Assembly: GCF_003334355.1 (NCBI RefSeq)
Contig: NZ_QOWP01000002.1
DNA length: 64,000 bases
Strand: one strand, 5' to 3'
Origin: Escherichia coli
GTDB lineage: Bacteria > Pseudomonadota > Gammaproteobacteria > Enterobacterales > Enterobacteriaceae
Shown: positions 1,387 through 46,402 of the stretch, in pieces
Layout of the letters: every line of letters starts with the position of its first letter
Numbering within the stretch: the first letter of the stretch is position 1
Made by a program: the position numbers and the translations under genes
Notes under the pieces: model-generated
What the model saw: the letters and a program-made list of their open reading frames with translations, nothing else
What the model was told of the DNA's origin: nothing
The model's database searches: none

Positions 1387-3261
1387 CTACTGCCGGGTAG
1401 CTTCGTTAACTAAGAGCGGGCGCACGGCAGTAGCCGCCTGATTTAGCGCTCTTTCATAAGCTGGCGTTCCAGCTTTAGTGTTTGCCAGACGTAAGAGCGC
1501 ATTCCTTGCTGCTTTGGATTCATACAAGCGCATCATTGCACCGAAACCAGCCTCAAGCCCCATTGATACGCCAAGAGTCGTAGTTGCGCCAATCGTCCTT
1601 ATCCTGTTGGCTTGCGATTGCCCCGTCTGAGTTACTACATTTGCGGTGTCTGATCTTGCTGTTTGCTGTAGAACTTCATGAAGAGCATCAAGTTCTTTCA
1701 TGTGCTTTCCAGAAAAAATAGCGTTGTAAATTTCACCGCCTGACTGAGATTTCAGCTTATTAACTTCCGTGATGAACTTGGCTGGAGAGTCACCGGCCTT
1801 TTCCGCTATTTTGCTGACGTAAGCTGCACGCATAGCATCTTTCCCTTTATCATCCAATGCGCTCCAGATTCGTTTCACGTCAGATGGTTTTCTGCTTAAT
1901 ACAACAGTATTTATAAGTTCAGGACTGGCTTCACTGCTTGCCTTGTTGAGCTTGTTAGCAATGTTTTTATTAAGCACCTTATTATAAACGTTTGCATAAT
2001 CGGAATTTGCTTTAAGGTATTTTGCTGCGTCTGAAGCACCGAGGTTTTTAGCAACTGCGTTACGAAGGTCTTTTGACATTGCATTCTCTACCATATTGGT
2101 AGCTGCTTTTGCCTGGTTGGGGAAGACCATGGCATCTCCCTGAACATTAGATCTAAATGCTGTTCTGTGCTGGCGCAAGAGATCAAACGTAACATCCAAA
2201 TCAGTTGCAGGGTTTGCTAATTCTTCACGTAGGTTACGCAAGGATGTAAGCAGGCTTTGATTGGCAGAAGTCCCAAGCCGTTCCTGTCTTGCGATCGCTG
2301 TATTCAGAGCATTCATGGTATTTGTGGTATCAACTGCGGCATTACCCATTTTATTGGTGACGTCATTGATAACAGCGCCAGCGGCATCCTTCCGTCCCCT
2401 TAACGTGGTGGTCAGAGATTTCACCACATCATCAGGGTTGTACTCACCAAAACGGTCAAAATAATTGCTTACCAGCTTACTACGCGTTGCATATTGCTCC
2501 GCTCGCTTTGAGCCTGTCCCGAGCAAAGCCCCCTCAGCATCCTGAGTAAGTCCGCGAGTGAAAGCATTTTTCGGCGGGATAACATCAGATGTCATTGGTG
2601 TCACGCCCATCGATTCTGATGTGGCAATTTTCTTTGCCACTTCTGGCGCAATATCACCTTTTATAGCCGTTATTCCACGCCCTATTCCCTTTGCTGCTGC
2701 GGAAAGAACCCCCTGAGCGGCAAGGTTAACTCCGGCATTTTTAGTTGCATTTTGTGCGAAATCGCCTTTCTGATTTGCGGCCTCTGCCAGTGATCCAATA
2801 GCCATGCTTCCTGCCGTTCCAACTCCTGGAACTAAATACCCGCCAATTGTTTCACCAGCTTGAGCGTAGGGGTCTGTCGGTCGATCGACTGGACGATAAA
2901 CATCATCCAAAACCTTGGGGCCACCAAGCCCCTGGCTGATTGCATTAATCAGGCTTGCGCCGCCCTGTAATACGTCGAATGGTATGTTTACCAGACCACG
3001 ACCAGCCTGCTCTGCAATTTGCCCTGCACTTTGACCACCTGTGAGCCAATCACCAGCTTGTTGCATCAATGATGGTTCTTCTTTCTGCTGCTGAGGCGGA
3101 GGGTATGCTGCATAAAACTGATCTCTTGCTTCAGCCCATTTGTCACCAGCCTTAGGGGCAACAACCTCATCAAAATATTGCGCTTGAGCCTGTGCTTTCT
3201 GTTCTTCAGTTAACGCCTGATACTGTGGAGAGGCGATAACATCTTTCCATGCTTTAGCCAT
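1387..3261 (-). CDS. ejection/internal virion protein, P22 gp16-like
   Basis: 624 aa, Ala/Gly/Gln-rich, last gene of late operon; size and position match P22 gp16 (609 aa). Confidence 0.7.
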
Positions 3262-7044: not shown

Positions 7045-8463
7045 TTATGTTACACGAATAGAAAGGCCTGATAATGTAACAGGACCTTTTGCAATAACTC
7101 TGAATTTAAATCCAATGAGGCGTCTAACTCGACCAACTTTTCGCCATAAAACGCGATTGTCATATACAAATGGTTTTTGTAATACGACCATTTGCTCACG
7201 ACCGTAATTAATTCCATCTGTAGTTGCTGATATAAATATTCTATCTATTCTATCACACACGCCGCCAGATGTTTCTAATTCAAGGTCATTTATTAAAGCG
7301 TTATCTGCCTTTATTAGAGGGGAATATAAAATATGCTCTTGTTGTTTTTCGTATTGTGAAGATATATCGAACTGCAATTTCCCGGTCACGGATTCCAGCT
7401 TATCGCCGCACGTTATCTGATTGCCTTCGTAAATGAAGTCGATAGCGCGGTACACATCGTCATACAAGCCAGTTTTCAACACACACCATTGCGGACCATT
7501 GGCGCTTGAAGATGCGTCGTACACGAGAACATGGCGCGCAAGATGGATAATCAGCAACTCATGCGCATCAAATCGTAGAGACTCCATCACGCCATCAGCC
7601 AGTTCATCAGCAGTGTAGGAACGGAGGATTTTCTCAATGCTCGCGCTGGCGATTGGTGATACCTGACCGGAGCCGATGATGTACACAGACGGCGCACCTG
7701 TTGCCGGATTGCTGATGAACGCATACGAATCAGCAAACGGCGTTTTGCAGTAAGTTCCGGCGATGCCTTTTTGCACCATCAGTGATGGCTGTGCGACATA
7801 CAAAGCAGCACCAACGGTGGTTGCGCCAGTCAGGGAGAAATATTCAATCGTCGATGAACCAAAGCAGACGATGAAGTCTCGCCATGTGCCGATACCGATG
7901 ATGCCGTCCGGCTGCGACTCGGCACGATATTGTGCGCTGTAACGGTCAGGATGCGATTCGTCTTCAAGGTCAGTGATAAACCATGAATCAGTGCCGTCTT
8001 TTGACCACGCATAACGCCCACGCAAGCGCGTAATGTCACGAACCGAACCTAACTCATACTGAGTGAATCCGCTATCTGCAGGCCAGTTTGAGACGGTTTT
8101 AACCGTGCCATCATAGCGATACTCGACCAGCTGACCGTTAACACCTACCGCCTGTGATGTCCGACCATGCGCCATTGATACGCGACCGCTTCCGGCAACA
8201 TCACCGACTTCACTTTCTCCTTTGTACAGCTTGCCACCACACACGCGATAAACAGCACCCTGCGCCATGTTGTACTCGACGCCGCGAGATACACCGTTCA
8301 CATCAGAACGTTTGGCAATGCCCGGGAATGAGCGAAGATATCCGCTGCTGTTCAGGATTTCTTTGGGTGTGGCCAGCATATTCACTGGCAGATAGTCGAT
8401 ATAGTCGGCGTTTCGAAAGTCTTTGCCGACACCTTTCATAAGCGGAAGTTGCTGAATCGGCAT
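7045..8463 (-). CDS. tail hub protein, P22 gp10-like
   Basis: 472 aa, identical length to P22 gp10; position after gp4-like gene. Confidence 0.7.
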   Translation of the reverse strand: MPIQQLPLMKGVGKDFRNADYIDYLPVNMLATPKEILNSSGYLRSFPGIAKRSDVNGVSRGVEYNMAQGAVYRVCGGKLYKGESEVGDVAGSGRVSMAHGRTSQAVGVNGQLVEYRYDGTVKTVSNWPADSGFTQYELGSVRDITRLRGRYAWSKDGTDSWFITDLEDESHPDRYSAQYRAESQPDGIIGIGTWRDFIVCFGSSTIEYFSLTGATTVGAALYVAQPSLMVQKGIAGTYCKTPFADSYAFISNPATGAPSVYIIGSGQVSPIASASIEKILRSYTADELADGVMESLRFDAHELLIIHLARHVLVYDASSSANGPQWCVLKTGLYDDVYRAIDFIYEGNQITCGDKLESVTGKLQFDISSQYEKQQEHILYSPLIKADNALINDLELETSGGVCDRIDRIFISATTDGINYGREQMVVLQKPFVYDNRVLWRKVGRVRRLIGFKFRVIAKGPVTLSGLSIRVT

Positions 8464-13600: not shown

Positions 13601-15016
13601 TCAACCTACACCACAAGGAATTGAGTAACTGGAATAGTCGGGTTGCGCAGCCGACTCCGGGCAATGCATACACATCATCAGCGCATCAGCCAGGTTAGGA
13701 GATGGAATACCGAGCTTCTGCTTCATTTCGACCTTAGTCATTAGCTCCAGCTTCCCGTTGTTATTGAATTTGCGCTGAATCTGCGTCAGTTCTGCAAACA
13801 GCTTCTCCAGCATATTCTCGCCTATCGCTTCTTTGTCGAAACTCAGCATGTCGTCGGGGTCTGCATACTCACCGTGAACAACCGCCCGATATGTCAGATA
13901 CAGCCTGTCAGCCAGCGCGTAATAGAATTGCGCTCGCTTATTGCGGAATACATCGCCAATAGTGCGAACATTGTCGCCCTGTACGACTTCATCAGCCCAT
14001 GCTCCGGCCTGATATGGCGCATCTTCATCGAATGGCGATTCGCTGCCCTTGAACATCGTGGCGGTGATTTTCTTGCCGGAGAACGCTTCCGTTGTCTGTC
14101 TGCGTAGCCCGGCACCAACACCATCACCATCCCACAGGTAATGGTCAGCGCCGTCTTCAATCGCCAGCGAAGTAGCCCAGTCAGCACCCTCGTTGATGTC
14201 CATCAGCAGACCTTCGGCAATGCGCTTAACTACCGAACCTTGACGCGATGCGTAACCTTTAGCATCTGGCCCTGTATCTGACGGGTCATGTGCAGAAACA
14301 ACCGCGCCTTTCGCTTTCCATCCGAGTTTCTTGTGCGCATCGGTTGCGGCTTCAAGCCATTCACGTTTGATGATTGCCATATCACTTGCGCTTACCGGCT
14401 CACCAAGCCAGATGTGACGATACAGTGTCGGATTTCTGCGTTTACACTCTTCCATCTCCAGACGGAGAACTTCAGGAAAGTGCGGGTTGTCGGTGTAGTT
14501 CACCGTCAGCAGGCAAATATCATCGGGAGGATTTACAACGAATCGCTGATAGGTATCGTCGAGGATGTTCTTCGGGTTAAAGCTCACCCATATTTCGGAA
14601 AACGGCTTGCGGATGGTTGGGATCAGGATATCCCATGATTCCTTCGTTACCGCTTCCGCTTCTTCCACCCAGCAGATATCAATGCCTTCGAGCGATTTAA
14701 TCTTCGTCGGGTTGTTTTTGATGCCGTAGAACATGAATTCAGCATTCGTTCCGAGATGACGGATCATTGAACGCTGAATTTCAAACTCAGCCGAATACCC
14801 TTCACGCTCGATGGTGTCTTCAAGCAACCGGATTACCGAATCGCTGATACTGTTTTGCAGTTCACGAGCACAGAGAATACGCACTGGCTGCCGACGCGCC
14901 GCTTCAACAAGCAGTCTCGCAATTGCCCATGATTTACCGCTACCTCGACCGCCTTTGGCGACTTTGTAGCGATGCGCCTCAATGAACGGTTCAAAGATAG
15001 GATTAATCGAGGTCAT
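13601..15016 (-). CDS. terminase large subunit
   Basis: 471 aa, Walker A GGRGSGKS near N-terminus; overlaps small subunit stop. Confidence 0.9.
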   Translation of the reverse strand: MTSINPIFEPFIEAHRYKVAKGGRGSGKSWAIARLLVEAARRQPVRILCARELQNSISDSVIRLLEDTIEREGYSAEFEIQRSMIRHLGTNAEFMFYGIKNNPTKIKSLEGIDICWVEEAEAVTKESWDILIPTIRKPFSEIWVSFNPKNILDDTYQRFVVNPPDDICLLTVNYTDNPHFPEVLRLEMEECKRRNPTLYRHIWLGEPVSASDMAIIKREWLEAATDAHKKLGWKAKGAVVSAHDPSDTGPDAKGYASRQGSVVKRIAEGLLMDINEGADWATSLAIEDGADHYLWDGDGVGAGLRRQTTEAFSGKKITATMFKGSESPFDEDAPYQAGAWADEVVQGDNVRTIGDVFRNKRAQFYYALADRLYLTYRAVVHGEYADPDDMLSFDKEAIGENMLEKLFAELTQIQRKFNNNGKLELMTKVEMKQKLGIPSPNLADALMMCMHCPESAAQPDYSSYSIPCGVG

Positions 15017-15453
15017 TTTCCGAATAGAGTGCTCATCGGTGATGTTTCAATCTGGATTGCGCCGCCGTCTTTGCCTGTTAGCTCGTGATCAACCTTGTCG
15101 CGCCATTTATCCTTCTGTCGGTTCTTAAGCCAGAAGATGGCAGCGGTTGTATCAGGAGGGTAATACTTCTCAAGCGGAGTTTCGACAATTCTGTTTTCAA
15201 TAACACGAATATCGATGTCTGGAGCCACGAAGCCCATAGCTCGTTGATAAAGACGATCACTAACTTCTGCATCAGCGACGGCCTTACCTTTTTTTATGGA
15301 CTCCGAAAACTTAGGATAATCAAGCTTCCACTTGTTAATAGTTGACTCACTGACTTCAAAGAAATCAGCAAGTTCTGCATCGGTGTAGCCCAGCAAGCAC
15401 AGTTTGCGTGCCTGTTCGGCATACGCCTCTTGATACTTTGTTGGGCGTGCCAT
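15013..15453 (-). CDS. terminase small subunit
   Basis: 146 aa with HTH-like N-terminus (ELADFFEVSESTINKW), immediately upstream of TerL. Confidence 0.7.
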   Translation of the reverse strand: MARPTKYQEAYAEQARKLCLLGYTDAELADFFEVSESTINKWKLDYPKFSESIKKGKAVADAEVSDRLYQRAMGFVAPDIDIRVIENRIVETPLEKYYPPDTTAAIFWLKNRQKDKWRDKVDHELTGKDGGAIQIETSPMSTLFGK

Positions 15454-15455
15454 GT

Positions 15456-15698
15456 TTATGCTCCGGTAGTGAACAGGTCTAACGCTTCCTTCGATTTACG
15501 CACCGCTTCGATAGTGCGGGTCGTGATATCTGAGTTAGCGCCACCTGACTGGAAGTGAATTTTGAATAGCTCAAGCTTCAGCTCGTCAGTGCCAATGAAT
15601 TGAAATGCTTCTTCTGCGGCTGCGTTCTGGTTCATGACCAGTTTGTAAATCTCTAACTGGAATTTCTGTTCTTCAGTCATGGGAATAATCTCTGCCAT
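15456..15698 (-). CDS. hypothetical acidic protein
   Basis: 80 aa ORF abutting TerS start. Confidence 0.4.
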   Translation of the reverse strand: MAEIIPMTEEQKFQLEIYKLVMNQNAAAEEAFQFIGTDELKLELFKIHFQSGGANSDITTRTIEAVRKSKEALDLFTTGA

Positions 15699-15954
15699 TG
15701 TTGGCTCCGTTTATCCGTTAAAAGGGATATCAGTTAAGTTATCCCGTGTAGGGTATAAGCCATTGTCGAGACCACTCATTGAATGGCCTCTGCAATAACC
15801 GATGTCTTTCCATCAGTCCGCCACCACAAAGAATCTTTTTTGCCATAAGGCAGGAGGTTCATCTTTCAGTGGCTGCCAGTGTTATTTCCCCACTTACTGG
15901 CTTGGGTTGTTTCGTGGTACTGCCGTAATGCAAAAACTGGATTAACCTGCGAAA

Positions 15955-16485
15955 TCACACCATTCCGGGCAAATACATTTGCACTTCATTTGCCGCTCTC
16001 TCACGTGCAACATGAAGCAATCTTTTTCGCCCACCAACGCCCCACTTAGCCATTTGGCTTGCGCACTGGCTTATCGCTTTGGTTTCAGTATTGATGATGT
16101 GATCGATTCTATTCAGACGGGACATTGCGCCAACGCCGAGACGGACAACCGTTTTGAAAACTTCATAAACTTCGACTTCAAATTCCGGCTTAATCCATGC
16201 TGCATATCTGATTGCCAGAAGTTCAACCCCCCACACACCTGGTTCTGCACCACCTTTGATTATTTTAAGTGGTTGAATTTGTTCCAAAGTGCTTTTTTGC
16301 ACTTTGGCCTCCAGTGCTTTTATGAAGCGTTTTATCTGCGCGCTACGCAAAAACTGGCTTGGACGCTGTTGCTCTGTAGCCTCTTCATTTGCAACTGCTG
16401 CTGCATGGAGATCGTTTAAGTTGTAGCGTCCATCCTCATCAACACGAACGGACACACCATTGACAATAACTGTTGGGTACTTCAT
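15955..16485 (-). CDS. KilA-N domain protein
   Basis: VRVDEDGRYNLNDLHAAA…RPSQFLR…KGG…GVWGVELLAIRYAAWIKPEFEVEVYEVF matches KilA-N pattern; located between lysis and packaging genes. Confidence 0.65.
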   Translation of the reverse strand: MKYPTVIVNGVSVRVDEDGRYNLNDLHAAAVANEEATEQQRPSQFLRSAQIKRFIKALEAKVQKSTLEQIQPLKIIKGGAEPGVWGVELLAIRYAAWIKPEFEVEVYEVFKTVVRLGVGAMSRLNRIDHIINTETKAISQCASQMAKWGVGGRKRLLHVARERAANEVQMYLPGMV

Positions 16486-16620
16486 CAGTGATTACCTTTT
16501 AGTGATGAACCTTGTCACACAGGATTCCGGCCCACAGAAAGGCACCGATCACCAAACCGGCATCCTCAAGGGTCATCCTGAAAGGTTCTGTGTTCAGAAG
16601 TCGCGCGTGTGAAGCGCGTT

Positions 16621-16660
16621 TGTTGCAGATATAAAAAAGCCCCGCAAATGCGAGGCTAAA
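16621..16660 (-). terminator. rho-independent terminator downstream of Rz
   Basis: Minus strand reads CCTCGCATTTGCGGGGC then TTTTTTATATCTGCA; shares 15-mer with tR' copy at 18479-18493. Confidence 0.45.
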
Positions 16661-16830
16661 TCCTGGTATTTGTAATGACTGGCTCTTATCTCAACGCAGC
16701 CCCTTACCGCGCGCCAGATGCTCAATATCAAGCATCAGCAATGAGATGTTTAATCTGGATTCACTCCAGAAGTGATCACCACCCTGTCTACAGAGCCAGA
16801 TGTGAAGGATGATGAGTAAAATTATCGCTA

Positions 16831-17298
16831 TCATTGAAGGCATTGCGTCCTGATGTATTCCTGAAGCGTTCTCAGTGCTGTTTGGTCGCGGATAATTCCG
16901 TCCCGGATATCGAGAACGTTTCGTCCAGCAACTGGAGAGAGTTCGACGGTGGCATCATTGCCCATGCCGGAGGCGCCGGAGGTTTCGGCTGAGGATGGCT
17001 CAGGGCATTTTCCTTTGACGAGCACCCTGCCACCATTATCAAGCTTGCGCCGAAGAGCATCATTTTCAGCTTTCGCATCAGCTAACTCCTTCGTGTATTT
17101 AGCATCGAGTGCATCAGCAGCACGCTGGCGTTGCTGCATGTCAGTAATGGTGGCGGCCGCCTGCTTCAGCTCACTGACTTTTTTATCGCGCTGCTCTTTG
17201 TAGGTCATGGCGTTATCACGGTAATGATTAACAGCCCATGACAGGCAGACGATGATGCAGATAACCAGAGCGGAGATAATCGCGGTTACTCTGCTCAT
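16831..17298 (-). CDS. Rz: i-spanin Rz
   Basis: 155 aa with N-terminal TM and coiled coil; near-identical to lambda Rz as recalled. Confidence 0.9.
16872..17078 (-). CDS. Rz1: o-spanin Rz1 lipoprotein embedded in Rz (+1 frame)
   Basis: Signal peptide with lipobox (VAGC), proline-rich; nested inside Rz. Confidence 0.8.
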
Positions 17299-17771
17299 AC
17301 CTCAATCTCTCTGACTGTTCCGCCAGCTTCTTTGAATTTTGCAATCAGGCTGTCAGCCTTATGCTCGAACTGGCCATAACCAGCCCCCGGCAACGAAGCC
17401 CAGATATTGCTGCAACGGTCGATTGCCTGACGGATATCACCGCGATCAATCATCGGTAAAGCGCCACGCTCTTTAATCTGCTGCAATGCCACAGCGTCCT
17501 GACTTTTCGGAGAGAAATCTTTCAGGCCAAGTTGCTTACGATAGGCATCCCACCAACGGGAAAGAAGCTGGTAACGTCCGGCTGCTGTTGATTTGAGTTT
17601 GGGGTTTAGCGTGACAAGTTTGCGAGGGTGATCGGAGTAATCAGTGAATAGCTCTCCGCCAACAATGACGTCATAACCATGATTTCTGGTTTTCTGACGT
17701 CCGTTATCAGTTCCCTCTGACCACGCCAGCATATCGAGGAACGCCTTACGTTGATTATTGATTTCCACCAT
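17295..17771 (-). CDS. R: endolysin (lytic transglycosylase), lambda R
   Basis: 158 aa [28 protein letters not shown]… essentially lambda R. Confidence 0.95.
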
Positions 17772-18078
17772 CTTCTACTCCGGCTTTTTTAGCAGCGAAG
17801 CGTTTGATAAGCGAACCAATCGAGTCAGTACCGATGTAGCCGATGAACACGCTCGTTATATAAGCGAGATTGCTACTTAGTCCGGCGAAGTCGAGAAGGT
17901 CACGAATGAACCAGGCGATAATGGCGCACATCGTTGCGTCGATTACTGTTTTTGTAAACGCACCGCCATTATATCTGCCGCGAAGGTACGCCATTGCAAA
18001 CGCAAGGATTGCCCCGATGCCTTGTTCCTTTGCCGCGAGAATGGCGGCTAACAGGTCATGTTTTTCTGGCATCTTCAT
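17755..18078 (-). CDS. S: holin/antiholin, lambda S
   Basis: 107 aa [20 protein letters not shown]… with Met1-Lys2-Met3 dual start. Confidence 0.95.
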
Positions 18079-18470
18079 GTCTTACCCCCAATAAGGGGAT
18101 TTGCTCTATTTATTTAGGAATAAGGTCGATTACTGATAGAACAAATCCAGGCTACTGTGTTTAGTAATCAGATTTGTTCGTGACCGATATGCACGGGCAA
18201 AACGGCAGGAGGTTGTTAGCGCGACCTCCTGCCACCCGCTTTCACGAAGATCATGTGTAGAAGGCCGCAGCATAACTATCACTGATGAGTTCAGGATAGC
18301 CAGTGGCACGGCTCAGTTTGGGTTGTGCTGTTGCTGGGCGGCGATGACGCCTGTACGCATTTGGTGATCCGGTTCTGCTTCCGGTATTCGCTTAATTCAG
18401 CACAACGGAAAGAGCACTGGCTAACCAGGCTCGCCGACTCTTCACGATTATCGACTCAATGCTCTTACCT

Positions 18471-18700
18471 GTTGTGCAGATATAAAAAATCCCGAAACCG
18501 TTATGCAGGCTCTAACTATTACCTGCGAACTGTTTCTGGATTGCATTTTGCAGACCTCTCTGCCTGCGATGGTTGGAGTTCCAGACGATACGTCGAAGTG
18601 ACCAACTAGGCGGAATCGGTAGTAAGCGCCGCCTCTTTTCATCTCACTACCACAACGAGCGAATTAACCCATCGTTGAGTCAAATTTACCCAATTTTATT
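18471..18700 (-). promoter_or_regulatory. late promoter pR' with qut, short 6S leader and tR' terminator
   Basis: Minus strand contains TTGACT …TAAATT promoter and GCCTGCATAACGGTTTCGGGATTTTTTAT terminator, matching lambda Q-S intergenic region as recalled. Confidence 0.7.
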
Positions 18701-18753
18701 CAAAAAGTCAATATCATGCCGTAAAGATGTTGCCATCCGTGGCAATCATGCCG

Positions 18754-19377
18754 CTAACGTGTGACCGCATTCAAAATGTTGTCTGCGATTGACTCTTCTT
18801 TGTGGCATTGCACCACCAGAGCGTCATACAGTGGCTTAACAGTGCGTGACCAGGTGGGTTGAGTAAGGTTTGGGATTAGCATCGTTACAGCGCGATATGC
18901 GGCGCTTGCTGGCATTCTTGAATAGCCGACACCTTTGCATCTTCCGCATTCTTTCTCAACAACTCTCCCCCACAGCTCTGTTTTGACAATATCGACCGCA
19001 CGGCCTGTACCGTGGCAATCTCTGCATCTTGCACCCGGCGTCGCGGCACTACGGCAATAATCCGCATAAGCGAATGTTGCGAGAACTTGCAGTACCTTTG
19101 CCTTAGTATTTCCTTCAAGCTTTGCCACACCACGGTATTTCCCCGATACCTTGTGTGCAAATTGCATCAGATAGTTGATAGCCTTTTGTTTGTCGTTCTG
19201 GCTGAGTTCGTGCTTACCGCAGAATGCAGCCATACCGAATCCGGCTTGTGATTGCGCCATCCCCATAGCAGCCATCACATCAGTACCGGAAAGAGAATCA
19301 GAAGCCGTGGCCCGTGGTGAGTCGCTCATCATCGGGCTTTTTGGCGAATGAAATTTAGCTACGCTTTCGAGTCTCAT
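18754..19377 (-). CDS. Q: late antiterminator Q
   Basis: 207 aa, Cys-rich zinc-binding region, lambda Q-like. Confidence 0.9.
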   Translation of the reverse strand: MRLESVAKFHSPKSPMMSDSPRATASDSLSGTDVMAAMGMAQSQAGFGMAAFCGKHELSQNDKQKAINYLMQFAHKVSGKYRGVAKLEGNTKAKVLQVLATFAYADYCRSAATPGARCRDCHGTGRAVDIVKTELWGRVVEKECGRCKGVGYSRMPASAAYRAVTMLIPNLTQPTWSRTVKPLYDALVVQCHKEESIADNILNAVTR

Positions 19378-19562
19378 CGTCTTCCCCTCTTGCCCTGTTT
19401 GACCATCAGGACGCCGTTAACTATTGCGTGACGCTCGCCTTTGCTGTCTCTGTTGTACTTGAGCACTGTTCCTCTTGCGCAGGAAAGCATCCTCGCCACT
19501 TCGGTCTGATTGCCTCGTGTCTGGATAAGAAGCTCTGGTATCGTTTGAATTGTGGCGTTCAT
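19374..19562 (-). CDS. ninH: NinH
   Basis: 62 aa …GNQTEVARMLSCARGTVLKY…HAIVNGVLMV similar to lambda NinH. Confidence 0.8.
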   Translation of the reverse strand: MNATIQTIPELLIQTRGNQTEVARMLSCARGTVLKYNRDSKGERHAIVNGVLMVKQGKRGRR

Positions 19563-19921
19563 ACGTTCTCCAGTTCGGTGATTTTTATTCCAAGCCCTCC
19601 GCCTGGTACTTTCACACCACGAATTACGCGAATGTCATCGAATTGCTCGTCGTCTTCCGCAAATCCGGCGTGGATAAGGGAGTCGAGTAAACCCTTCAGG
19701 ATGTTATCGAGGTCGCGGCGGCGGGAGTCTGGAACGTCTGCGATGACTTTGATGCGGAGTCTTGATTTGGTGAAAATGTCTAACTTGAGTTGGCGGATGA
19801 TTTGCTGAACGTCTTTTCGGTATTTCTGGCCTTTATCGCTGATGTAGTATTGGCTTCCCCGTCTTCGCCAGTAGGTATTCACCGACGGCGGGTAAGGAAG
19901 CACAAACTGATATTCGTTCAT
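19559..19921 (-). CDS. rusA: RusA-family Holliday junction resolvase
   Basis: 120 aa with LPYPPSVNTYW and DSRRRDLDN motifs. Confidence 0.85.
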   Translation of the reverse strand: MNEYQFVLPYPPSVNTYWRRRGSQYYISDKGQKYRKDVQQIIRQLKLDIFTKSRLRIKVIADVPDSRRRDLDNILKGLLDSLIHAGFAEDDEQFDDIRVIRGVKVPGGGLGIKITELENV

Positions 19922-30649: not shown

Positions 30650-30817
30650 ATGAGAGGACTTGCATACAATCCCGGCATTCTTCCGGCAGAAATGATTATT
30701 CGCCAACGCGTAAAGCCAATGCCATCGAGAGAGGAATTGCTTAAGAGAAATTCTTTTCCATCAGTAAATCAAAACAAATATCTGAATGCGATGTGGCGCA
30801 AAGGAGGCAACCAGTGA
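30650..30817 (+). CDS. hypothetical small protein
   Basis: 55 aa. Confidence 0.3.
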
Positions 30818-40589: not shown

Positions 40590-43500
40590 ATGAAGTTTTT
40601 ACCCTATATTTTTCTTCTCTGTTGTGGTCTTTGGTCGGCCATAAGTTTCGCAGACGAAGATTACATCGAATATCGTGGCATCAGTAGTAACAACCGTGTC
40701 ACACTTGATCCACTACGTCTGAGCAACAAGGAATTACGTTGGTTAGCGAGCAAAAAAAATCTTGTGATTGCAGTACATAAGTCCCAAACGGCTACGTTGT
40801 TGCATACCGATTCGCAGCAACGGGTTCGTGGTATTAATGCTGATTATTTAAATCTTTTAAAAAGAGCGTTAAATATCAAATTAACACTCCGGGAATACGC
40901 AGATCATCAAAAAGCAATGGACGCGCTTGCAGAAGGTGAAGTCGATATAGTGTTATCACATTTAGTTACTTCGCCGCCTCTTAATAATGACATTGCTGCA
41001 ACCAAACCATTGATAATTACCTTTCCGGCGCTGGTAACCACCCTTCACGACTCAATGCGACCGCTTACCTCACCAAAACCAGTAAATATTGCTCGGGTAG
41101 CAAATTACCCCCCAGACGAGGTAATTCATCAATCATTTCCAAAAGCAACAATTATCTCTTTTACAAATTTATATCAGGCATTAGCATCCGTCTCAGCTGG
41201 GCACAATGATTACTTTATTGGTAGTAACATCATTACCAGCAGTATGATTTCCCGCTATTTCACTCACTCCTTAAATGTAGTGAAATATTATAACTCGCCG
41301 CGTCAATATAATTTTTTCTTGACCAGAAAAGAATCTGTCATTCTTAATGAAGTACTCAATAGATTTGTTGATGCTTTAACAAATGAAGTTCGCTATGAAG
41401 TATCACAAAATTGGCTTGATACAGGAAACCTGGCCTTTCTGAACAAACCATTAGAACTCACTGAACATGAAAAACAGTGGATTAAGCAGCATCCCAATTT
41501 AAAGGTGCTGGAAAATCCTTACTCGCCCCCCTATTCTATGACGGATGAAAATGGCTCGGTTCGGGGCGTTATGGGAGACATTCTTAATATTATTACCTTG
41601 CAAACAGGTTTAAATTTTTCTCCGATCACCGTTTCACACAATATCCATGCTGGAACACAGCTTAGCCCCGGAGGATGGGATATAATACCTGGCGCTATTT
41701 ATAGTGAAGATCGAGAAAATAATGTTTTATTTGCTGAAGCCTTCATAACAACGCCTTACGTTTTTGTCATGCAAAAAGCGCCTGACAGTGAACAAACATT
41801 AAAAAAAGGAATGAAAGTTGCCATTCCATATTATTATGAGCTGCATTCGCAATTAAAAGAGATGTATCCGGAGGTTGAATGGATACAGGTCGATAATGCC
41901 AGCGCTGCATTTCACAAGGTTAAGGAAGGTGAACTTGATGCTCTGGTCGCGACACAGCTAAATTCGCGTTACATGATCGATCATTACTATCCTAATGAAC
42001 TTTATCATTTTCTTATTCCTGGCGTTCCGAATGCATCGCTTTCGTTCGCTTTTCCTCGCGGAGAACCGGAACTTAAGGATATTATTAATAAAGCACTGAA
42101 TGCAATTCCCCCAAGCGAAGTTCTGCGCCTGACGGAAAAATGGATTAAAATGCCCAATGTGACCATTGACACATGGGACCTATATAGCGAGCAATTTTAT
42201 ATTGTTACGACATTATCCGTTTTATTAGTTGGCAGTAGCCTTTTATGGGGATTCTACCTGTTACGCTCAGTTCGTCGTCGTAAAGTCATTCAGGGTGATT
42301 TAGAAAACCAAATATCATTCCGAAAAGCACTCTCGGATTCCTTACCGAATCCAACTTATGTTGTAAACTGGCAAGGTAATGTCATTAGTCATAATAGTGC
42401 TTTTGAACATTATTTCACTGCGGATTACTACAAAAATGCAATGTTACCATTAGAAAACAGTGACTCACCCTTTAAAGATGTTTTTTCTAATGCGCATGAA
42501 GTCACAGCAGAAACGAAAGAAAATCGAACAATATACACACAGGTATTTGAAATTGATAATGGCATCGAGAAAAGATGCATTAATCACTGGCATACATTAT
42601 GCAATCTTCCTGCAAGTGACAATGCAGTATATATTTGTGGTTGGCAAGATATTACTGAAACGCGTGATCTAATTAATGCACTCGAGGTAGAAAAAAATAA
42701 AGCGATAAAGGCTACCGTAGCAAAAAGTCAGTTTCTGGCAACGATGAGTCACGAAATAAGAACACCAATAAGCTCTATTATGGGCTTCCTGGAACTTCTG
42801 TCGGGTTCTGGTCTTAGCAAGGAGCAACGGGTGGAGGCGATTTCACTTGCCTACGCCACCGGACAATCACTCCTCGGCTTAATTGGTGAAATCCTTGATG
42901 TCGACAAAATTGAATCGGGTAACTATCAACTTCAACCACAATGGGTCGATATCCCTACTTTAGTCCAGAACACTTGTCACTCTTTCGGTGCGATTGCTGC
43001 AAGCAAATCGATCGCATTAAGTTGCAGCAGTACGTTTCCTGAACATTACCTGGTTAAGATCGACCCTCAGGCGTTTAAGCAGGTCTTATCAAATTTACTG
43101 AGTAATGCTCTCAAATTTACCACCGAGGGGGCAGTAAAAATTACGACCTCCCTGGGTCACATTGATGACAACCACGCTGTTATCAAAATGACGATTATGG
43201 ATTCTGGAAGTGGATTATCGCAGGAAGAACAACAACAACTGTTTAAACGCTACAGCCAAACAAGTGCAGGTCGTCAGCAAACAGGTTCTGGTTTAGGCTT
43301 AATGATCTGCAAAGAATTAATTAAAAATATGCAGGGCGATTTGTCATTAGAAAGTCATCCAGGCATAGGAACAACATTTACGATCACAATCCCGGTAGAA
43401 ATTAGCCAGCAAGTGGCGACTGTCGAGGCAAAAGCAGAACAACCCATCACACTACCTGAAAAGTTGAGCATATTAATCGCGGATGATCATCCGACCAACA

Positions 43501-44183
43501 GGCTATTACTCAAACGCCAGCTAAATCTATTAGGATATGATGTTGATGAAGCCACTGATGGTGTGCAAGCGCTACACAAAGTCAGTATGCAACATTATGA
43601 TCTGCTTATTACTGACGTTAATATGCCGAATATGGATGGTTTTGAGTTGACTCGCAAACTCCGTGAGCAAAATTCTTCCTTACCCATCTGGGGGCTTACA
43701 GCCAACGCACAGGCTAACGAACGTGAAAAAGGGTTAAGTTGCGGCATGAACTTATGTTTGTTCAAACCGTTGACCCTGGATGTACTGAAAACACATTTAA
43801 GTCAGTTACTCCAAGTTGCGCATATTGCACCTCAGTATCGCCACCTTGATATCGAAGCCCTGAAAAATAATACGGCGAACGATCTACAACTGATGCAGGA
43901 GATTCTCATGACTTTCCAGCATGAAACGCATAAAGATCTACCCGCTGCGTTTCAAGCACTAGAAGCTGGCGATAACAGAACTTTCCATCAGTGTATTCAT
44001 CGCATCCACGGTGCGGCTAACATCCTGAATTTGCAAAAGTTGATTAATATTAGCCATCAGTTAGAAATAACACCTGTTTCAGATGACAGTAAGCCTGAAA
44101 TTCTTCAGTTGCTGAACTCTGTAAAAGAACACATTGCAGAGCTGGACCAGGAGATTGCTGTTTTCTGTCAGAAAAATGACTAA
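40590..44183 (+). CDS. evgS: hybrid sensor histidine kinase EvgS
   Basis: 1197 aa; periplasmic domains, HisKA/HATPase, receiver, HPt. Confidence 0.95.
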   Translation: MKFLPYIFLLCCGLWSAISFADEDYIEYRGISSNNRVTLDPLRLSNKELRWLASKKNLVIAVHKSQTATLLHTDSQQRVRGINADYLNLLKRALNIKLTLREYADHQKAMDALAEGEVDIVLSHLVTSPPLNNDIAATKPLIITFPALVTTLHDSMRPLTSPKPVNIARVANYPPDEVIHQSFPKATIISFTNLYQALASVSAGHNDYFIGSNIITSSMISRYFTHSLNVVKYYNSPRQYNFFLTRKESVILNEVLNRFVDALTNEVRYEVSQNWLDTGNLAFLNKPLELTEHEKQWIKQHPNLKVLENPYSPPYSMTDENGSVRGVMGDILNIITLQTGLNFSPITVSHNIHAGTQLSPGGWDIIPGAIYSEDRENNVLFAEAFITTPYVFVMQKAPDSEQTLKKGMKVAIPYYYELHSQLKEMYPEVEWIQVDNASAAFHKVKEGELDALVATQLNSRYMIDHYYPNELYHFLIPGVPNASLSFAFPRGEPELKDIINKALNAIPPSEVLRLTEKWIKMPNVTIDTWDLYSEQFYIVTTLSVLLVGSSLLWGFYLLRSVRRRKVIQGDLENQISFRKALSDSLPNPTYVVNWQGNVISHNSAFEHYFTADYYKNAMLPLENSDSPFKDVFSNAHEVTAETKENRTIYTQVFEIDNGIEKRCINHWHTLCNLPASDNAVYICGWQDITETRDLINALEVEKNKAIKATVAKSQFLATMSHEIRTPISSIMGFLELLSGSGLSKEQRVEAISLAYATGQSLLGLIGEILDVDKIESGNYQLQPQWVDIPTLVQNTCHSFGAIAASKSIALSCSSTFPEHYLVKIDPQAFKQVLSNLLSNALKFTTEGAVKITTSLGHIDDNHAVIKMTIMDSGSGLSQEEQQQLFKRYSQTSAGRQQTGSGLGLMICKELIKNMQGDLSLESHPGIGTTFTITIPVEISQQVATVEAKAEQPITLPEKLSILIADDHPTNRLLLKRQLNLLGYDVDEATDGVQALHKVSMQHYDLLITDVNMPNMDGFELTRKLREQNSSLPIWGLTANAQANEREKGLSCGMNLCLFKPLTLDVLKTHLSQLLQVAHIAPQYRHLDIEALKNNTANDLQLMQEILMTFQHETHKDLPAAFQALEAGDNRTFHQCIHRIHGAANILNLQKLINISHQLEITPVSDDSKPEILQLLNSVKEHIAELDQEIAVFCQKND

Positions 44184-44189
44184 ATAGCG

Positions 44190-44216
44190 GCTCCCACAAT
44201 GTTCAAATGTGGGAGC
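44190..44216. terminator. bidirectional hairpin (GCTCCCACA-N9-TGTGGGAGC) between evgS and yfdE
   Basis: Perfect 9-bp stem read directly. Confidence 0.5.
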
Positions 44217-44238
44217 TATTTACCAGCACATCTTACAT

Positions 44239-45384
44239 TTATGATGAGAACTCCTGGCGAATTTGTTCCCCATGCTGGTCGAGCGTTGCCGCTCCCGGCA
44301 TAACATGCGGGTCCGCGCAGCCGCTGATTTTTATCGGATTACCCGGCATCATTATTCCCCCGGCTTCAATCAACATATTTCTCGCCTGAGTTTGTGGCAA
44401 TTTAATGGCCTCAGCCACACTTAATAACGGCGCGACGGGTACACCAACTTCATGTATTCTGGCTAACCAAACTTCAGCTGCCTGCGTTTTTAACGTCCGC
44501 TCAATATATTGTTTAAGAATAGCCTGGTTTTGTACGCGTAAAATATTGCTGCTAAATCGGGGATCATTAACCAGTTCCGTAAGCTCCAGTGCCTGGCATA
44601 ACGCAGAAAAAAGCTTGTCATTACCACAACAAATCGTAATCGGCTTATCCTGAGTATTGAAAACATCAAAAGGTGCCATGTAGGGATGGCGATTTCCCAG
44701 ACGTTGTGGTGACTTCCCAGTTGCGATATATGCCATCAGACCATGCTCCAGAAAACTCAGCGTGGCATCAAACATCGCTATATCGACATGCGCCCCTCTC
44801 TGGCTCTTTTCGCGGCCATAAAGTGCACTCACTATTCCGCTGAATAAATAGACACCGCCGCATAGATCCGCAAGAGATGTACCAACGCGCACTGGCGGAG
44901 CATCAGGATATCCTGTTTCCATCATTATCCCGCTCATTGCCTGAATGATGGTATCGTAGGCAGGAGCATCTTTTAGCGGACCGGTATGTCCGAAACCTGA
45001 CGATGAAGCATATATGAGGCGCGGGTTGATTTCTTGAAGCGTTTCCCATGAAAACCCCAGTTTTTCCATTGTACCTGGGCGAAAATTCTCAGCTAATACA
45101 TCAGCTTGTTTGAGCATATTTATAAATATACTTTTATCGTGATCATTCTTTAAATCAAGAACCACACTCTCTTTGCCATGATTAATAAAACTGTAATAGA
45201 GTGACTGTCCATCCACATAGGGACCAAATGTGCGGGTATCATCACCATGACCCGGCGGCTCAACTTTAATTACCCTTGCGCCCATATTACAAAGAAGTTG
45301 AGTTCCGAAAGGTCCATTAAGGACATGTGTCATATCGATAACTAATAAGCCTTCAAACGGCCCTTTGCTTTCATTATTTGTCAT
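44239..45384 (-). CDS. yfdE: acetyl-CoA:oxalate CoA-transferase (family III CoA-transferase)
   Basis: CaiB/BaiF-type sequence; start taken at MTNNESKG (381 aa). Confidence 0.85.
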   Translation of the reverse strand: MTNNESKGPFEGLLVIDMTHVLNGPFGTQLLCNMGARVIKVEPPGHGDDTRTFGPYVDGQSLYYSFINHGKESVVLDLKNDHDKSIFINMLKQADVLAENFRPGTMEKLGFSWETLQEINPRLIYASSSGFGHTGPLKDAPAYDTIIQAMSGIMMETGYPDAPPVRVGTSLADLCGGVYLFSGIVSALYGREKSQRGAHVDIAMFDATLSFLEHGLMAYIATGKSPQRLGNRHPYMAPFDVFNTQDKPITICCGNDKLFSALCQALELTELVNDPRFSSNILRVQNQAILKQYIERTLKTQAAEVWLARIHEVGVPVAPLLSVAEAIKLPQTQARNMLIEAGGIMMPGNPIKISGCADPHVMPGAATLDQHGEQIRQEFSS

Positions 45385-45457
45385 TTGCTTATGCCTTGAA
45401 AAAAGCCGAAGGTGAAAAGACACTTCGGCATTTATGTAAAATCAATAACATGATTAA

Positions 45458-46402
45458 TTATGAAACCAGTCGACTGACATAAATCCACAAGGGAGCCGTG
45501 ACGACAAAGCCCAGTACGCTCACAGCCAATGACGCTGTACCAGTACGGGTGTAGACATTAAACCGGCTGGCAATAATGATTCCGGAGAATGCCGGCGGTA
45601 ATGCGCCTGCCAGTACCATCATCTGCAGATGTTCGCTGTTCAAATGACATGCCATACCAACGAGAAGCAGTGCCAGTGGCATCAGAATCAGCTTCAGGAA
45701 GGTGTTATAAGCAATTTCGGCACTGAACTCGAATTTATGTGCAGCCAGAGTCAACCCCGCAGCGAATACCGCTACCCCTGAGTTAGCCTTCGCAATCAGA
45801 TTAAAGGTTGGGTCCCATGCTGCCGGAATTTTTACCCCAACCAACACCAGGATCGTTGCCAGAACAGGTGCCCATACTACTGGCTCCTTTGCCGCAGAAA
45901 TTAATGCGCTCAGATTACTATTCTTCTTACCATCCGCTCCTGAGGAAGGATTCAGCAAATACAGACCAATAGGAATAGTAATTGCGTTAACAATAATAGA
46001 AATAATTGCTACCACTAAACCTGTTGATACGGAATCACCATAAATAGGATCGAGAACTGCAAACCCCAGGAATCCAATGGTAGGTGAACCCGCAATTAAT
46101 GCACATACAGCTGCTTCTGCATGGGTACGTTTAAAAAATTTGTAGCAACCAAACCAGGAGAAAAAGAAACATCCGACAATAACCACAAGTGATACAAGGG
46201 TCAGACGAGTGTCCGCAAAAATCATTTCCCTGTTTGCCCGGGTAATAGAAACAAATAGAGCCGCAGGAAGCGCGTAGTTTAATACCAGTTTATTAAATGC
46301 GCGGGCTTGATCTTCTGAAAAAGTTTCTCGTCTGCCGCTAAAATAACCCAACAGCATGATTACGATAATAGGCAATAAATCGCCAATAAAAAATGTTAGC
46401 AT
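45458..46402 (-). CDS. yfdV: AEC-family transporter
   Basis: 314 aa polytopic membrane protein in oxc-frc operon. Confidence 0.85.

Follow-up and report, generated by a model that had tools for sequence, protein, structure and literature searches.

In phage lambda, the 6S leader RNA initiated at pR' has a length of ca. 194 nt (bioRxiv 10.1101/2024.10.31.621285) and ends at the terminator tR' (t6S), which lies after Q, pR' and qut and is overridden by Q. A terminator of a second family is found after the lysis genes of other lambdoid phages: in Salmonella phage epsilon34 (EU570103) and coliphage HK106 (JQ086369), a GCCTCGC-loop-GCGGGGC hairpin followed by a T-tract is recorded as a 'Rho-independent terminator' downstream of Rz, a 50-aa ORF being present or not. 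Intra-operon terminators have also been predicted, in a study of phage L, for P22-like late operons having a single antiterminated promoter; they were proposed to block spurious transcription that is not antiterminated or to attenuate it partially, their roles being stated as not known (PMC8022706). The phage L terminator sits after the procapsid genes, whereas the one described below sits after the lysis genes.

The DNA analysed here, a stretch of 64,000 nt referred to as the window, represents an HK620-like (P22-type, Lederbergvirus) prophage of E. coli. It carries counterparts of both terminators, each next to a copy of the same 15-mer. Both elements are already known, tR' being a textbook case and the post-lysis terminator being annotated in records of related phages.

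Two predicted terminators in a lambdoid late operon

The features predicted in this region are as follows.

18754..19377, minus strand: Q antiterminator of lambda type, 207 aa (ORF list, local blastn)
18683..18711, minus strand: late promoter pR' (TTGACT-17-TAAATT), overlapping qut (promoter scan, collinearity with lambda)
18483..18676, minus strand: 6S-type leader RNA, 194 nt (start placed by collinearity with lambda)
18484..18541, minus strand: tR' terminator, long interrupted stem and U6 (RNA folds)
18475..18489, minus strand: copy 2 of the 15-mer (TTTTTTATATCTGCA), T-tract of tR' and 9-nt tail (pattern search)
18397..18480, minus strand: conserved stem-loop of ~84 nt just past tR' (GCACAACAGGUAAGAGCAUU...AGUGCUCUUUCCGUUGUGC), with a variable interior (folds)
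17755..18078, minus strand: S holin of lambda type (ORF list, blastn)
17295..17771, minus strand: R endolysin of lambda type (ORF list, blastn)
16831..17298, minus strand: Rz spanin with embedded Rz1 (16872-17078), 3' part of HK620 type
16691..16843, minus strand: conserved hypothetical ORF, 50 aa, positional counterpart of epsilon34 gp67
16633..16657, minus strand: post-lysis intrinsic terminator, AGCCUCGC-AUUU-GCGGGGCU stem-loop and U6 (fold, annotation of epsilon34 and HK106)
16624..16638, minus strand: copy 1 of the 15-mer, post-lysis T-tract and 9-nt tail (pattern search)
16602..16618, no strand assigned: small GCGC hairpin past the tail, kept in several downstream flank classes (fold and flank survey)
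15955..16485, minus strand: ORF of KilA-N type, first gene past the post-lysis terminator (ORF list)
15453..13601, minus strand: small and large terminase subunits (ORF list)

The window contains two exact copies of TGCAGATATAAAAAA, each on the plus strand (16624-16638 and 18475-18489), and a pattern search of the whole 64 kb with up to two mismatches gave no further site. Since the genes here are all on the minus strand, the motif is read as TTTTTTATATCTGCA with the hairpins lying 5' of it, and in this coding orientation it is made up of an intrinsic-terminator T-tract and 9 further bases. The original prediction, which reported this 15-mer twice with a GC-rich hairpin at each copy, was thus confirmed in part: the repeat is real, exact and on a single strand, but its second copy lies 4 bases away from the 18479-18493 initially given, and a compact hairpin is found only at the post-lysis site (16657..16638), tR' having a long interrupted stem instead.

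The copy at 18489..18475 belongs to the counterpart of lambda tR', at the predicted end of a 194-nt 6S leader RNA. A Q gene of lambda type, pR' and qut lie upstream of it, and a stable stem immediately precedes the U-tract. The promoter is collinear with that of lambda with a single substitution, in the spacer, and 222 nt separate the -35 hexamer (18711) from the T-tract in the window as in lambda. From this hexamer through 40 nt past the T-tract, only 2 of 262 positions differ from lambda, and a start 7 nt past the -10 hexamer would give an RNA of 194 nt (18676-18483) ending at the A after U6. The stem itself (18541..18489, AAUCCAGAAAC...GUUUCGGGAUU) is the same long stem as in lambda and folds as 11 pairs, AAUCCCGAAAC/GUUUCGGGAUU, closing an inner GCAGG/CCUGC branch. 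Its fold energy is -22.1 kcal/mol in the window (z -3.05) as opposed to -34.1 kcal/mol in lambda, a weakening due to a C>A change at 18537 in the 5' arm that removes one G-C pair and that is private to the window, being absent from about 108 other tR' loci. Lambda has a single copy of the 15-mer, at 44774-44788, and a second, post-lysis hairpin was not found in its genome.

Just past tR', the 'CTGCA' of the 15-mer forms the foot of the stem-loop at 18397-18480. The GCACAACAGGUAAGAGCAUU...AGUGCUCUUUCCGUUGUGC closing stem of this element is found downstream of three types of tR' hairpin, namely those of lambda, of P22/HK620 (at least 8 loci) and of a locus with another type of Q (L459), so that the 3' part of the tR' tail appears to be accounted for by a neighbouring conserved stem-loop.

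The post-lysis site has, in turn, the features expected of an intrinsic terminator. The hairpin at 16657..16638 (AGCCTCGC-ATTT-GCGGGGCT in its DNA form) comprises 8 pairs, 6 of which are G-C, and a 4-nt loop followed by U6, which corresponds to the canonical anatomy of such signals. It belongs to the same family as the terminators annotated in epsilon34 and HK106 and occupies the same place, the window and epsilon34 being 94% identical over 119 nt in this area; the epsilon34 record annotates gp67 as similar to Sf6 gene 65. The three phages differ in their tails, with ACATCTGCAG in epsilon34, ATGTCCGCAG in HK106 and ATATCTGCAA in the window. Across relatives, changes in the hairpin fall in the loop or are compatible with wobble pairing (GCCCCGC, GCTTCGC), variation that is too slight for a covariation test. 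A search of Rfam with positions 15400-19400 gave no match at the gathering score.

Other roles for the post-lysis site were considered and discarded. A bidirectional terminator is ruled out by the plus strand, on which the hairpin is followed by TAAATCC and no T-tract. A promoter hidden in the tail was rejected as no acceptable -35/-10 pair was seen by inspection or in the promoter scan, and the scan was equally negative over the interval that separates the terminator from the KilA-N ORF. A tRNA remnant made up of the tail and a GGTAAGAGCA box was also considered and given up, ARAGORN having found no tRNA in the window.

Taken together, we consider it probable (roughly 0.8) that the two 15-mers mark two separate intrinsic terminators in a Q-antiterminated late operon, in an HK620-like prophage that has a lambda-type Q-pR'-6S-S-R segment. 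By analogy with lambda and P22, pR' would be constitutive. When Q is absent, RNA polymerase would halt at tR' (T-tract 18489..18484) and release the 194-nt 6S-type leader, while polymerase that has met Q at qut would pass both tR' and, beyond the lysis genes, the second terminator (hairpin 16657..16638, T-tract 16638..16633), and go on to transcribe KilA-N, the terminase genes and the virion genes. For polymerase devoid of Q, the second terminator would most likely be a barrier to these downstream genes; alternatively, it may provide the 3' end of the lysis-gene RNA.

Tails of the two terminators in related phages

As a bare repeat, the 15-mer is not exceptional. Exact repeats that reach 15 nt number 9 in the window, against 7.3 +/- 3.0 repeated 15-mers in random sequences of matching composition (Markov-1), a count in keeping with chance. 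Only the register is remarkable, with both copies beginning at a terminator T-tract on the same strand. The T-tract part would be required by every such terminator, and the other 9 bases then represent the tail. That these 9 bases match by coincidence, as AT-rich tails of unrelated terminators, is possible although not the explanation that we favour. Post-T-tract tails are compositionally biased, with prefixes such as ATTGCC, ATTGGAG and ATTTGGG common to many unrelated hairpins, and of the 15-mer matches listed in viral contigs (120) most are in AT-rich contigs of unrelated origin and a hairpin precedes just 5 of 117, indicating that outside lambdoid phages the motif is not linked to terminators. 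Tails of ~200 distinct terminator hairpins from lambdoid loci were compared in ~19,300 pairings of unrelated hairpins; they began with the same 7 nt or more in 0.33% of the pairs and with the same 9 nt or more in 0.07%. A window with ~100 terminator pairs should contain ~0.07 pairs that match over 9 nt. A match of this length is thus unlikely for this specific pair (about 7 in 10,000) and only mildly so for some terminator pair in a 64-kb window.

Related terminators were collected by scanning viral contigs for the post-lysis hairpin (at least 120 loci), the 3' arm of lambda tR' (107 loci) and the tR' hairpin of P22/HK620 type (at least 120 loci). The tails of lambda tR' are mostly ATATCTGTG, as ATATCTGTG[C/T]AACAGGTAAGAGCATT, with the ATATCTGCA tail (ATATCTGCACAACAGG...) of lambda and the window occurring at ~16 of 108 loci and an unrelated tail, ATTTGGGTCAG..., at 20 of 107; altogether these loci fall into at least 19 tail classes. 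Among the matches listed for the post-lysis hairpin, the tail is ACATCTGCAG / ACATCTGCAGTAAAC in 22 cases, ATATCTGAAT / ATATCTGAATTTCAC, the HK620 type, in 18 and ATATCTGCAA / ATATCTGCAACAAAC, the type of the window, in 4, next to dozens of unrelated tails.

Both terminators are present 1.5-2.1 kb apart in 46 loci, the window included. In 34 of these loci, the two tails have no more than 2 leading nucleotides in common; they agree over 7 nt in 9 loci and over 9 nt in 3, and a 13-nt core is common to both in 12. A survey of lambdoid loci for a constant flanking motif, which the original prediction had called for, therefore spoke against one, the 15-mer being exact at both terminators in 3/46 loci only. 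The tail variants of the two terminators combine freely. In particular, the post-lysis tail of window type is seen with both tR' variants, which gives no indication that one copy has converted the other, and concerted evolution of the two was discarded on the same observation.

The identical 15-mer is best regarded, from the sequences compared, as the property of a small sublineage, the wider likeness consisting of a looser core, T5-6 A[T/C]ATCTG. Each terminator family shows several tail variants around this core, and the window happens to join the two 'CA' variants. ATCTG at tail positions 3-7 is common to the commonest variants of both families, and the full ATATCTG core is found in the commonest tR' tail and in the second commonest post-lysis tail, two observations that weigh against coincidence. 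Related tails also recur past other hairpins, some of them in the tR' position: the CATTTCTGCA tail is found at the tR'-position terminator of HK620 and at a locus (L158) situated between a different Q-like gene and a holin, where the stem is CCTCGC/GCGGGG as in the post-lysis hairpin, and a further locus (L205) has the tail ATATCTGG. Two points weigh against our favoured reading: a 9-nt match in register is rare (0.07%), and the similar tails past several hairpins point to some non-random cause for the shared core. The resemblances suggest to us a shuffling of terminator ends from one position to another within the lambdoid group; the looser core is probably a trace either of terminator ends exchanged long ago between lambdoid phages or of some mild constraint that the ends share.

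Under another reading the tail would be functional: the T-tract and A(Y)ATCTG(CA) would act, as DNA or as RNA, as an element downstream of the hairpin for which several lambdoid terminators have been selected independently. Such an element might modulate the efficiency of termination, affect release, or mark a site at which the read-through RNA is processed. Telesnitsky and Chamberlin in 1989, and Reynolds and Chamberlin in 1992, are said to have found that sequences downstream of the U-tract alter terminator efficiency, and the short islands of similarity past at least five hairpins (lambda tR', HK620-type, L158, L205 and post-lysis), within unrelated flanks, are in line with such a role. We nevertheless regard it as unlikely, because the tail varies freely in each family (ATATCTG, ACATCTG, ATGTCCG, ATACCCG, or absent), many copies of one hairpin have quite different tails, the motif has no terminator linkage outside lambdoid phages, and the adjacent conserved stem-loop already explains the 3' part of the tR' tail.

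Blocks of homology and junctions in the late region

The block between the two terminators had been described as essentially lambda sequence followed by P22-like virion genes. As for the latter, the downstream terminase genes are HK620-like, that is P22-like; the former holds from Q through the 5' half of Rz, but not for the 3' end of Rz, Rz1, the 50-aa ORF and the second terminator, which are of HK620/epsilon34 type. In local blastn, positions 19387-17051 of the window align without interruption with lambda 43875-46213 (96.5% identity). This block spans from the start of Q, where the lambda record marks a recombination site (43884/5), to the middle of Rz, ending at ca. 17051 at the start of Rz1. 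Homology with HK620 (blastn) occurs in a first block from 20741 to 18654, just past qut, a second from 18201 to 16603, whose ends lie ~120 nt ahead of S and 21 nt beyond the 15-mer, and further blocks from 15926 to 15458 and from 15101 onward into the terminase genes. The comparisons with lambda and with HK620 gave no block bounded by both terminators.

Junctions were mapped as the ends of blastn alignments between positions 15000-19800 of the window and the 107 tR' loci. Homology is lost in clusters at 18480-18499 (19 breakpoints, at the tR' T-tract), 18440-18459 (27), 18080-18099 (11), 17060-17079 (35, mid-Rz), 16600-16639 (20, post-lysis tail), 15800-15819 and 15440-15459, and is gained at 19380-19399, 18660-18679, 18300-18339 (27), 18200-18219, 16860-16879, 16640-16659 (7, start of the hairpin) and 15920-15939 (43). 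Junctions do occur at each terminator, but the 4.8 kb contain at least ten such sites in all, some of them within genes. Strong junctions elsewhere include the start of Q, the end of qut, a point 25 nt past tR', ~18300-18340, 18200, the start of S and mid-Rz; with so many of them, the lysis cassette does not appear to be exchanged as one unit.

These data bear on the proposal that the two copies are matched boundary repeats, at which recombination swaps the lysis cassette as a unit. Breakpoints do cluster at both terminators (19 at 18480-18499, 20 at 16600-16639 and 7 at 16640-16659), the homology of HK620, Kapi1 and phiv205-1 ends just past the post-lysis tail (ca. 16626-16631 in megablast, 16603 in blastn), and the post-lysis hairpin is found downstream of many spanin types. 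To this extent the terminators may act as recombination boundaries, yet the 15-mer does not bound a cassette: beyond its rarity as an exact pair and the free assortment of the tails, the lambda block crosses tR' and stops in mid-Rz, and the junction clusters include mid-Rz, with 35 breakpoints, and the start of S. Hybrid junctions were not found either. The 107 tR' loci were searched for sequences in which tR' had recombined with the post-lysis terminator, but none has a downstream flank of post-lysis type, and the only match to a hybrid pattern combining the post-lysis hairpin with the tR' downstream box, at L459, turned out to be the tR' equivalent belonging to another type of Q. Moreover, if the two ends of a genome's cassette resemble each other, deletion of the lysis genes would be favoured and not their exchange. 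Exchange at a terminator needs homology of tR' with tR' and of post-lysis with post-lysis, and similarity of the ends within a genome is not required. The boundary-repeat proposal is already largely refuted and we consider it very improbable; the two 15-mers are the ends of ordinary, already annotated stop signals and not matched repeats bounding a cassette. In the form in which it was put forward, the finding is of little consequence and its useful outcome is a negative one, namely that a striking exact repeat beside two hairpins is no evidence for a bounded mobile cassette. The true mosaic joints of the late region are many, and some are inside genes, such as that in mid-Rz at the start of Rz1.

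The post-lysis hairpin appears to be a small conserved island between many unrelated and reassorting flanks. Among the matches listed, its 23 nt are associated with 28 upstream and 29 downstream flank classes, the upstream class of the window being paired with five downstream classes. Because these loci were picked by the hairpin, its conservation is built into the comparison, and the informative part is the sharp loss of similarity at its edges. Upstream of the hairpin there are no fewer than 8 spanin (Rz) types and, occasionally, genes other than lysis genes. 'Linker' or boundary sequences at the junctions of lambdoid modules were reportedly postulated by Susskind and Botstein, and the likeness resides in a short conserved sequence between unrelated flanks that reassort. 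The conserved unit is here the hairpin with its T-tract and not the 15-mer, and crossover within the hairpin is putative. That one 23-nt hairpin between dozens of unrelated flanks fits this old idea is of modest value for the study of phage genome evolution.

More tentatively, although with somewhat less confidence than we would give to coincidence, one may envisage a portable pool of terminators, each made of hairpin, T-tract and a few tail bases (chiefly AGCCTCGC-ATTN-GCGGGGCT-T6), serving as crossover points that reassort lysis cassettes and their neighbours; the T-tract and AYATCTG core would then be a scar of exchange or a functional tail travelling with the hairpin. Past the hairpin of the window, the post-lysis tail opens a diverged yet recognisable downstream block that contains the small GCGC hairpin.

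Edges of the lysis block

Homology to HK620 picks up again at 18201, beside the third terminator-like hairpin of the region, which lies ca. 120 nt upstream of S:

18204-18233, minus strand: terminator-like hairpin (GGCAGGAGGTCGCGCTAACAACCTCCTGCC plus GUUUUGCC), with GTTTTGCC at 18203..18196

Clusters of homology breakpoints among related phages flank this hairpin on both sides, and it, not tR', forms the left edge of the lysis block shared with HK620. Within Rz, a lambda/HK620-type junction (17051-17078) coincides with the start of Rz1, where a breakpoint was also detected in 35 of the 107 related loci, so that the C-terminal part of Rz and Rz1 are inherited together as a single unit, whereas the N-terminal part of Rz is derived from lambda.

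The tR' stem and the structure that follows it

The tR' of the window prophage carries a C>A substitution at 18537 (minus strand) in the 5' arm of its stem, which reads AATCCAGAAAC where others read AATCCCGAAAC and by which a G-C pair is lost. The predicted fold reaches -22.1 kcal/mol versus -34.1 kcal/mol in lambda. This substitution was found in none of the ca. 108 other lambda-type tR' loci compared, and it could render the terminator leakier in this prophage. Directly 3' of tR' occurs a further structure:

18397-18480, minus strand (lambda 44783-44866): stem-loop of ca. 84 nt

Its closing stem (GCACAACAGGUAAGAGCAUU / AGUGCUCUUUCCGUUGUGC) is conserved and is preceded, in identical form, by three different types of tR' hairpin; its interior varies, with mosaic junction clusters just within. 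Daniels et al. 1988 name a late-leader RNase III site in their title, and this stem-loop may correspond to it.

Recurring hairpins and tails

The hairpin located after the lysis genes recurs in other phages:

16634-16656, minus strand (loci L123-L242): post-lysis hairpin (GCCTCGCATTNGCGGGGC plus T-tract)

Among the matches listed, its exact sequence is associated with 28 upstream and 29 downstream classes of unrelated flanks and is preceded by at least eight spanin types, as well as by non-lysis genes. Its behaviour is that of a portable terminator or linker. Between this terminator and the KilA-N ORF lies an unannotated reading frame:

16499-16576, minus strand: hydrophobic ORF of 25 codons (MTLEDAGLVIGAFLWAGILCDKVHH)

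The stretch 16562-16617, which overlaps this ORF, is common to many Stx phages.

Hairpins at the tR' position were also found downstream of different Q types:

HK620 (L001), 3155-3195: tR'-position hairpin
Phage locus L158, about 7775-7830, minus strand: tR'-position hairpin

These two hairpins are different and share the tail TTTTT(T)CATTTCTGCA, beyond which the sequences are unrelated. The HK620 hairpin, a strong one directly after qut, carries no annotation in the HK620 record, where the late terminator is annotated as "tQ" ca. 600 nt further downstream.

Finally, the longest exact repeats within the window are two pairs of 17-nt direct repeats (40450-40466 / 40982-40998 and 30802-30818 / 31043-31059).
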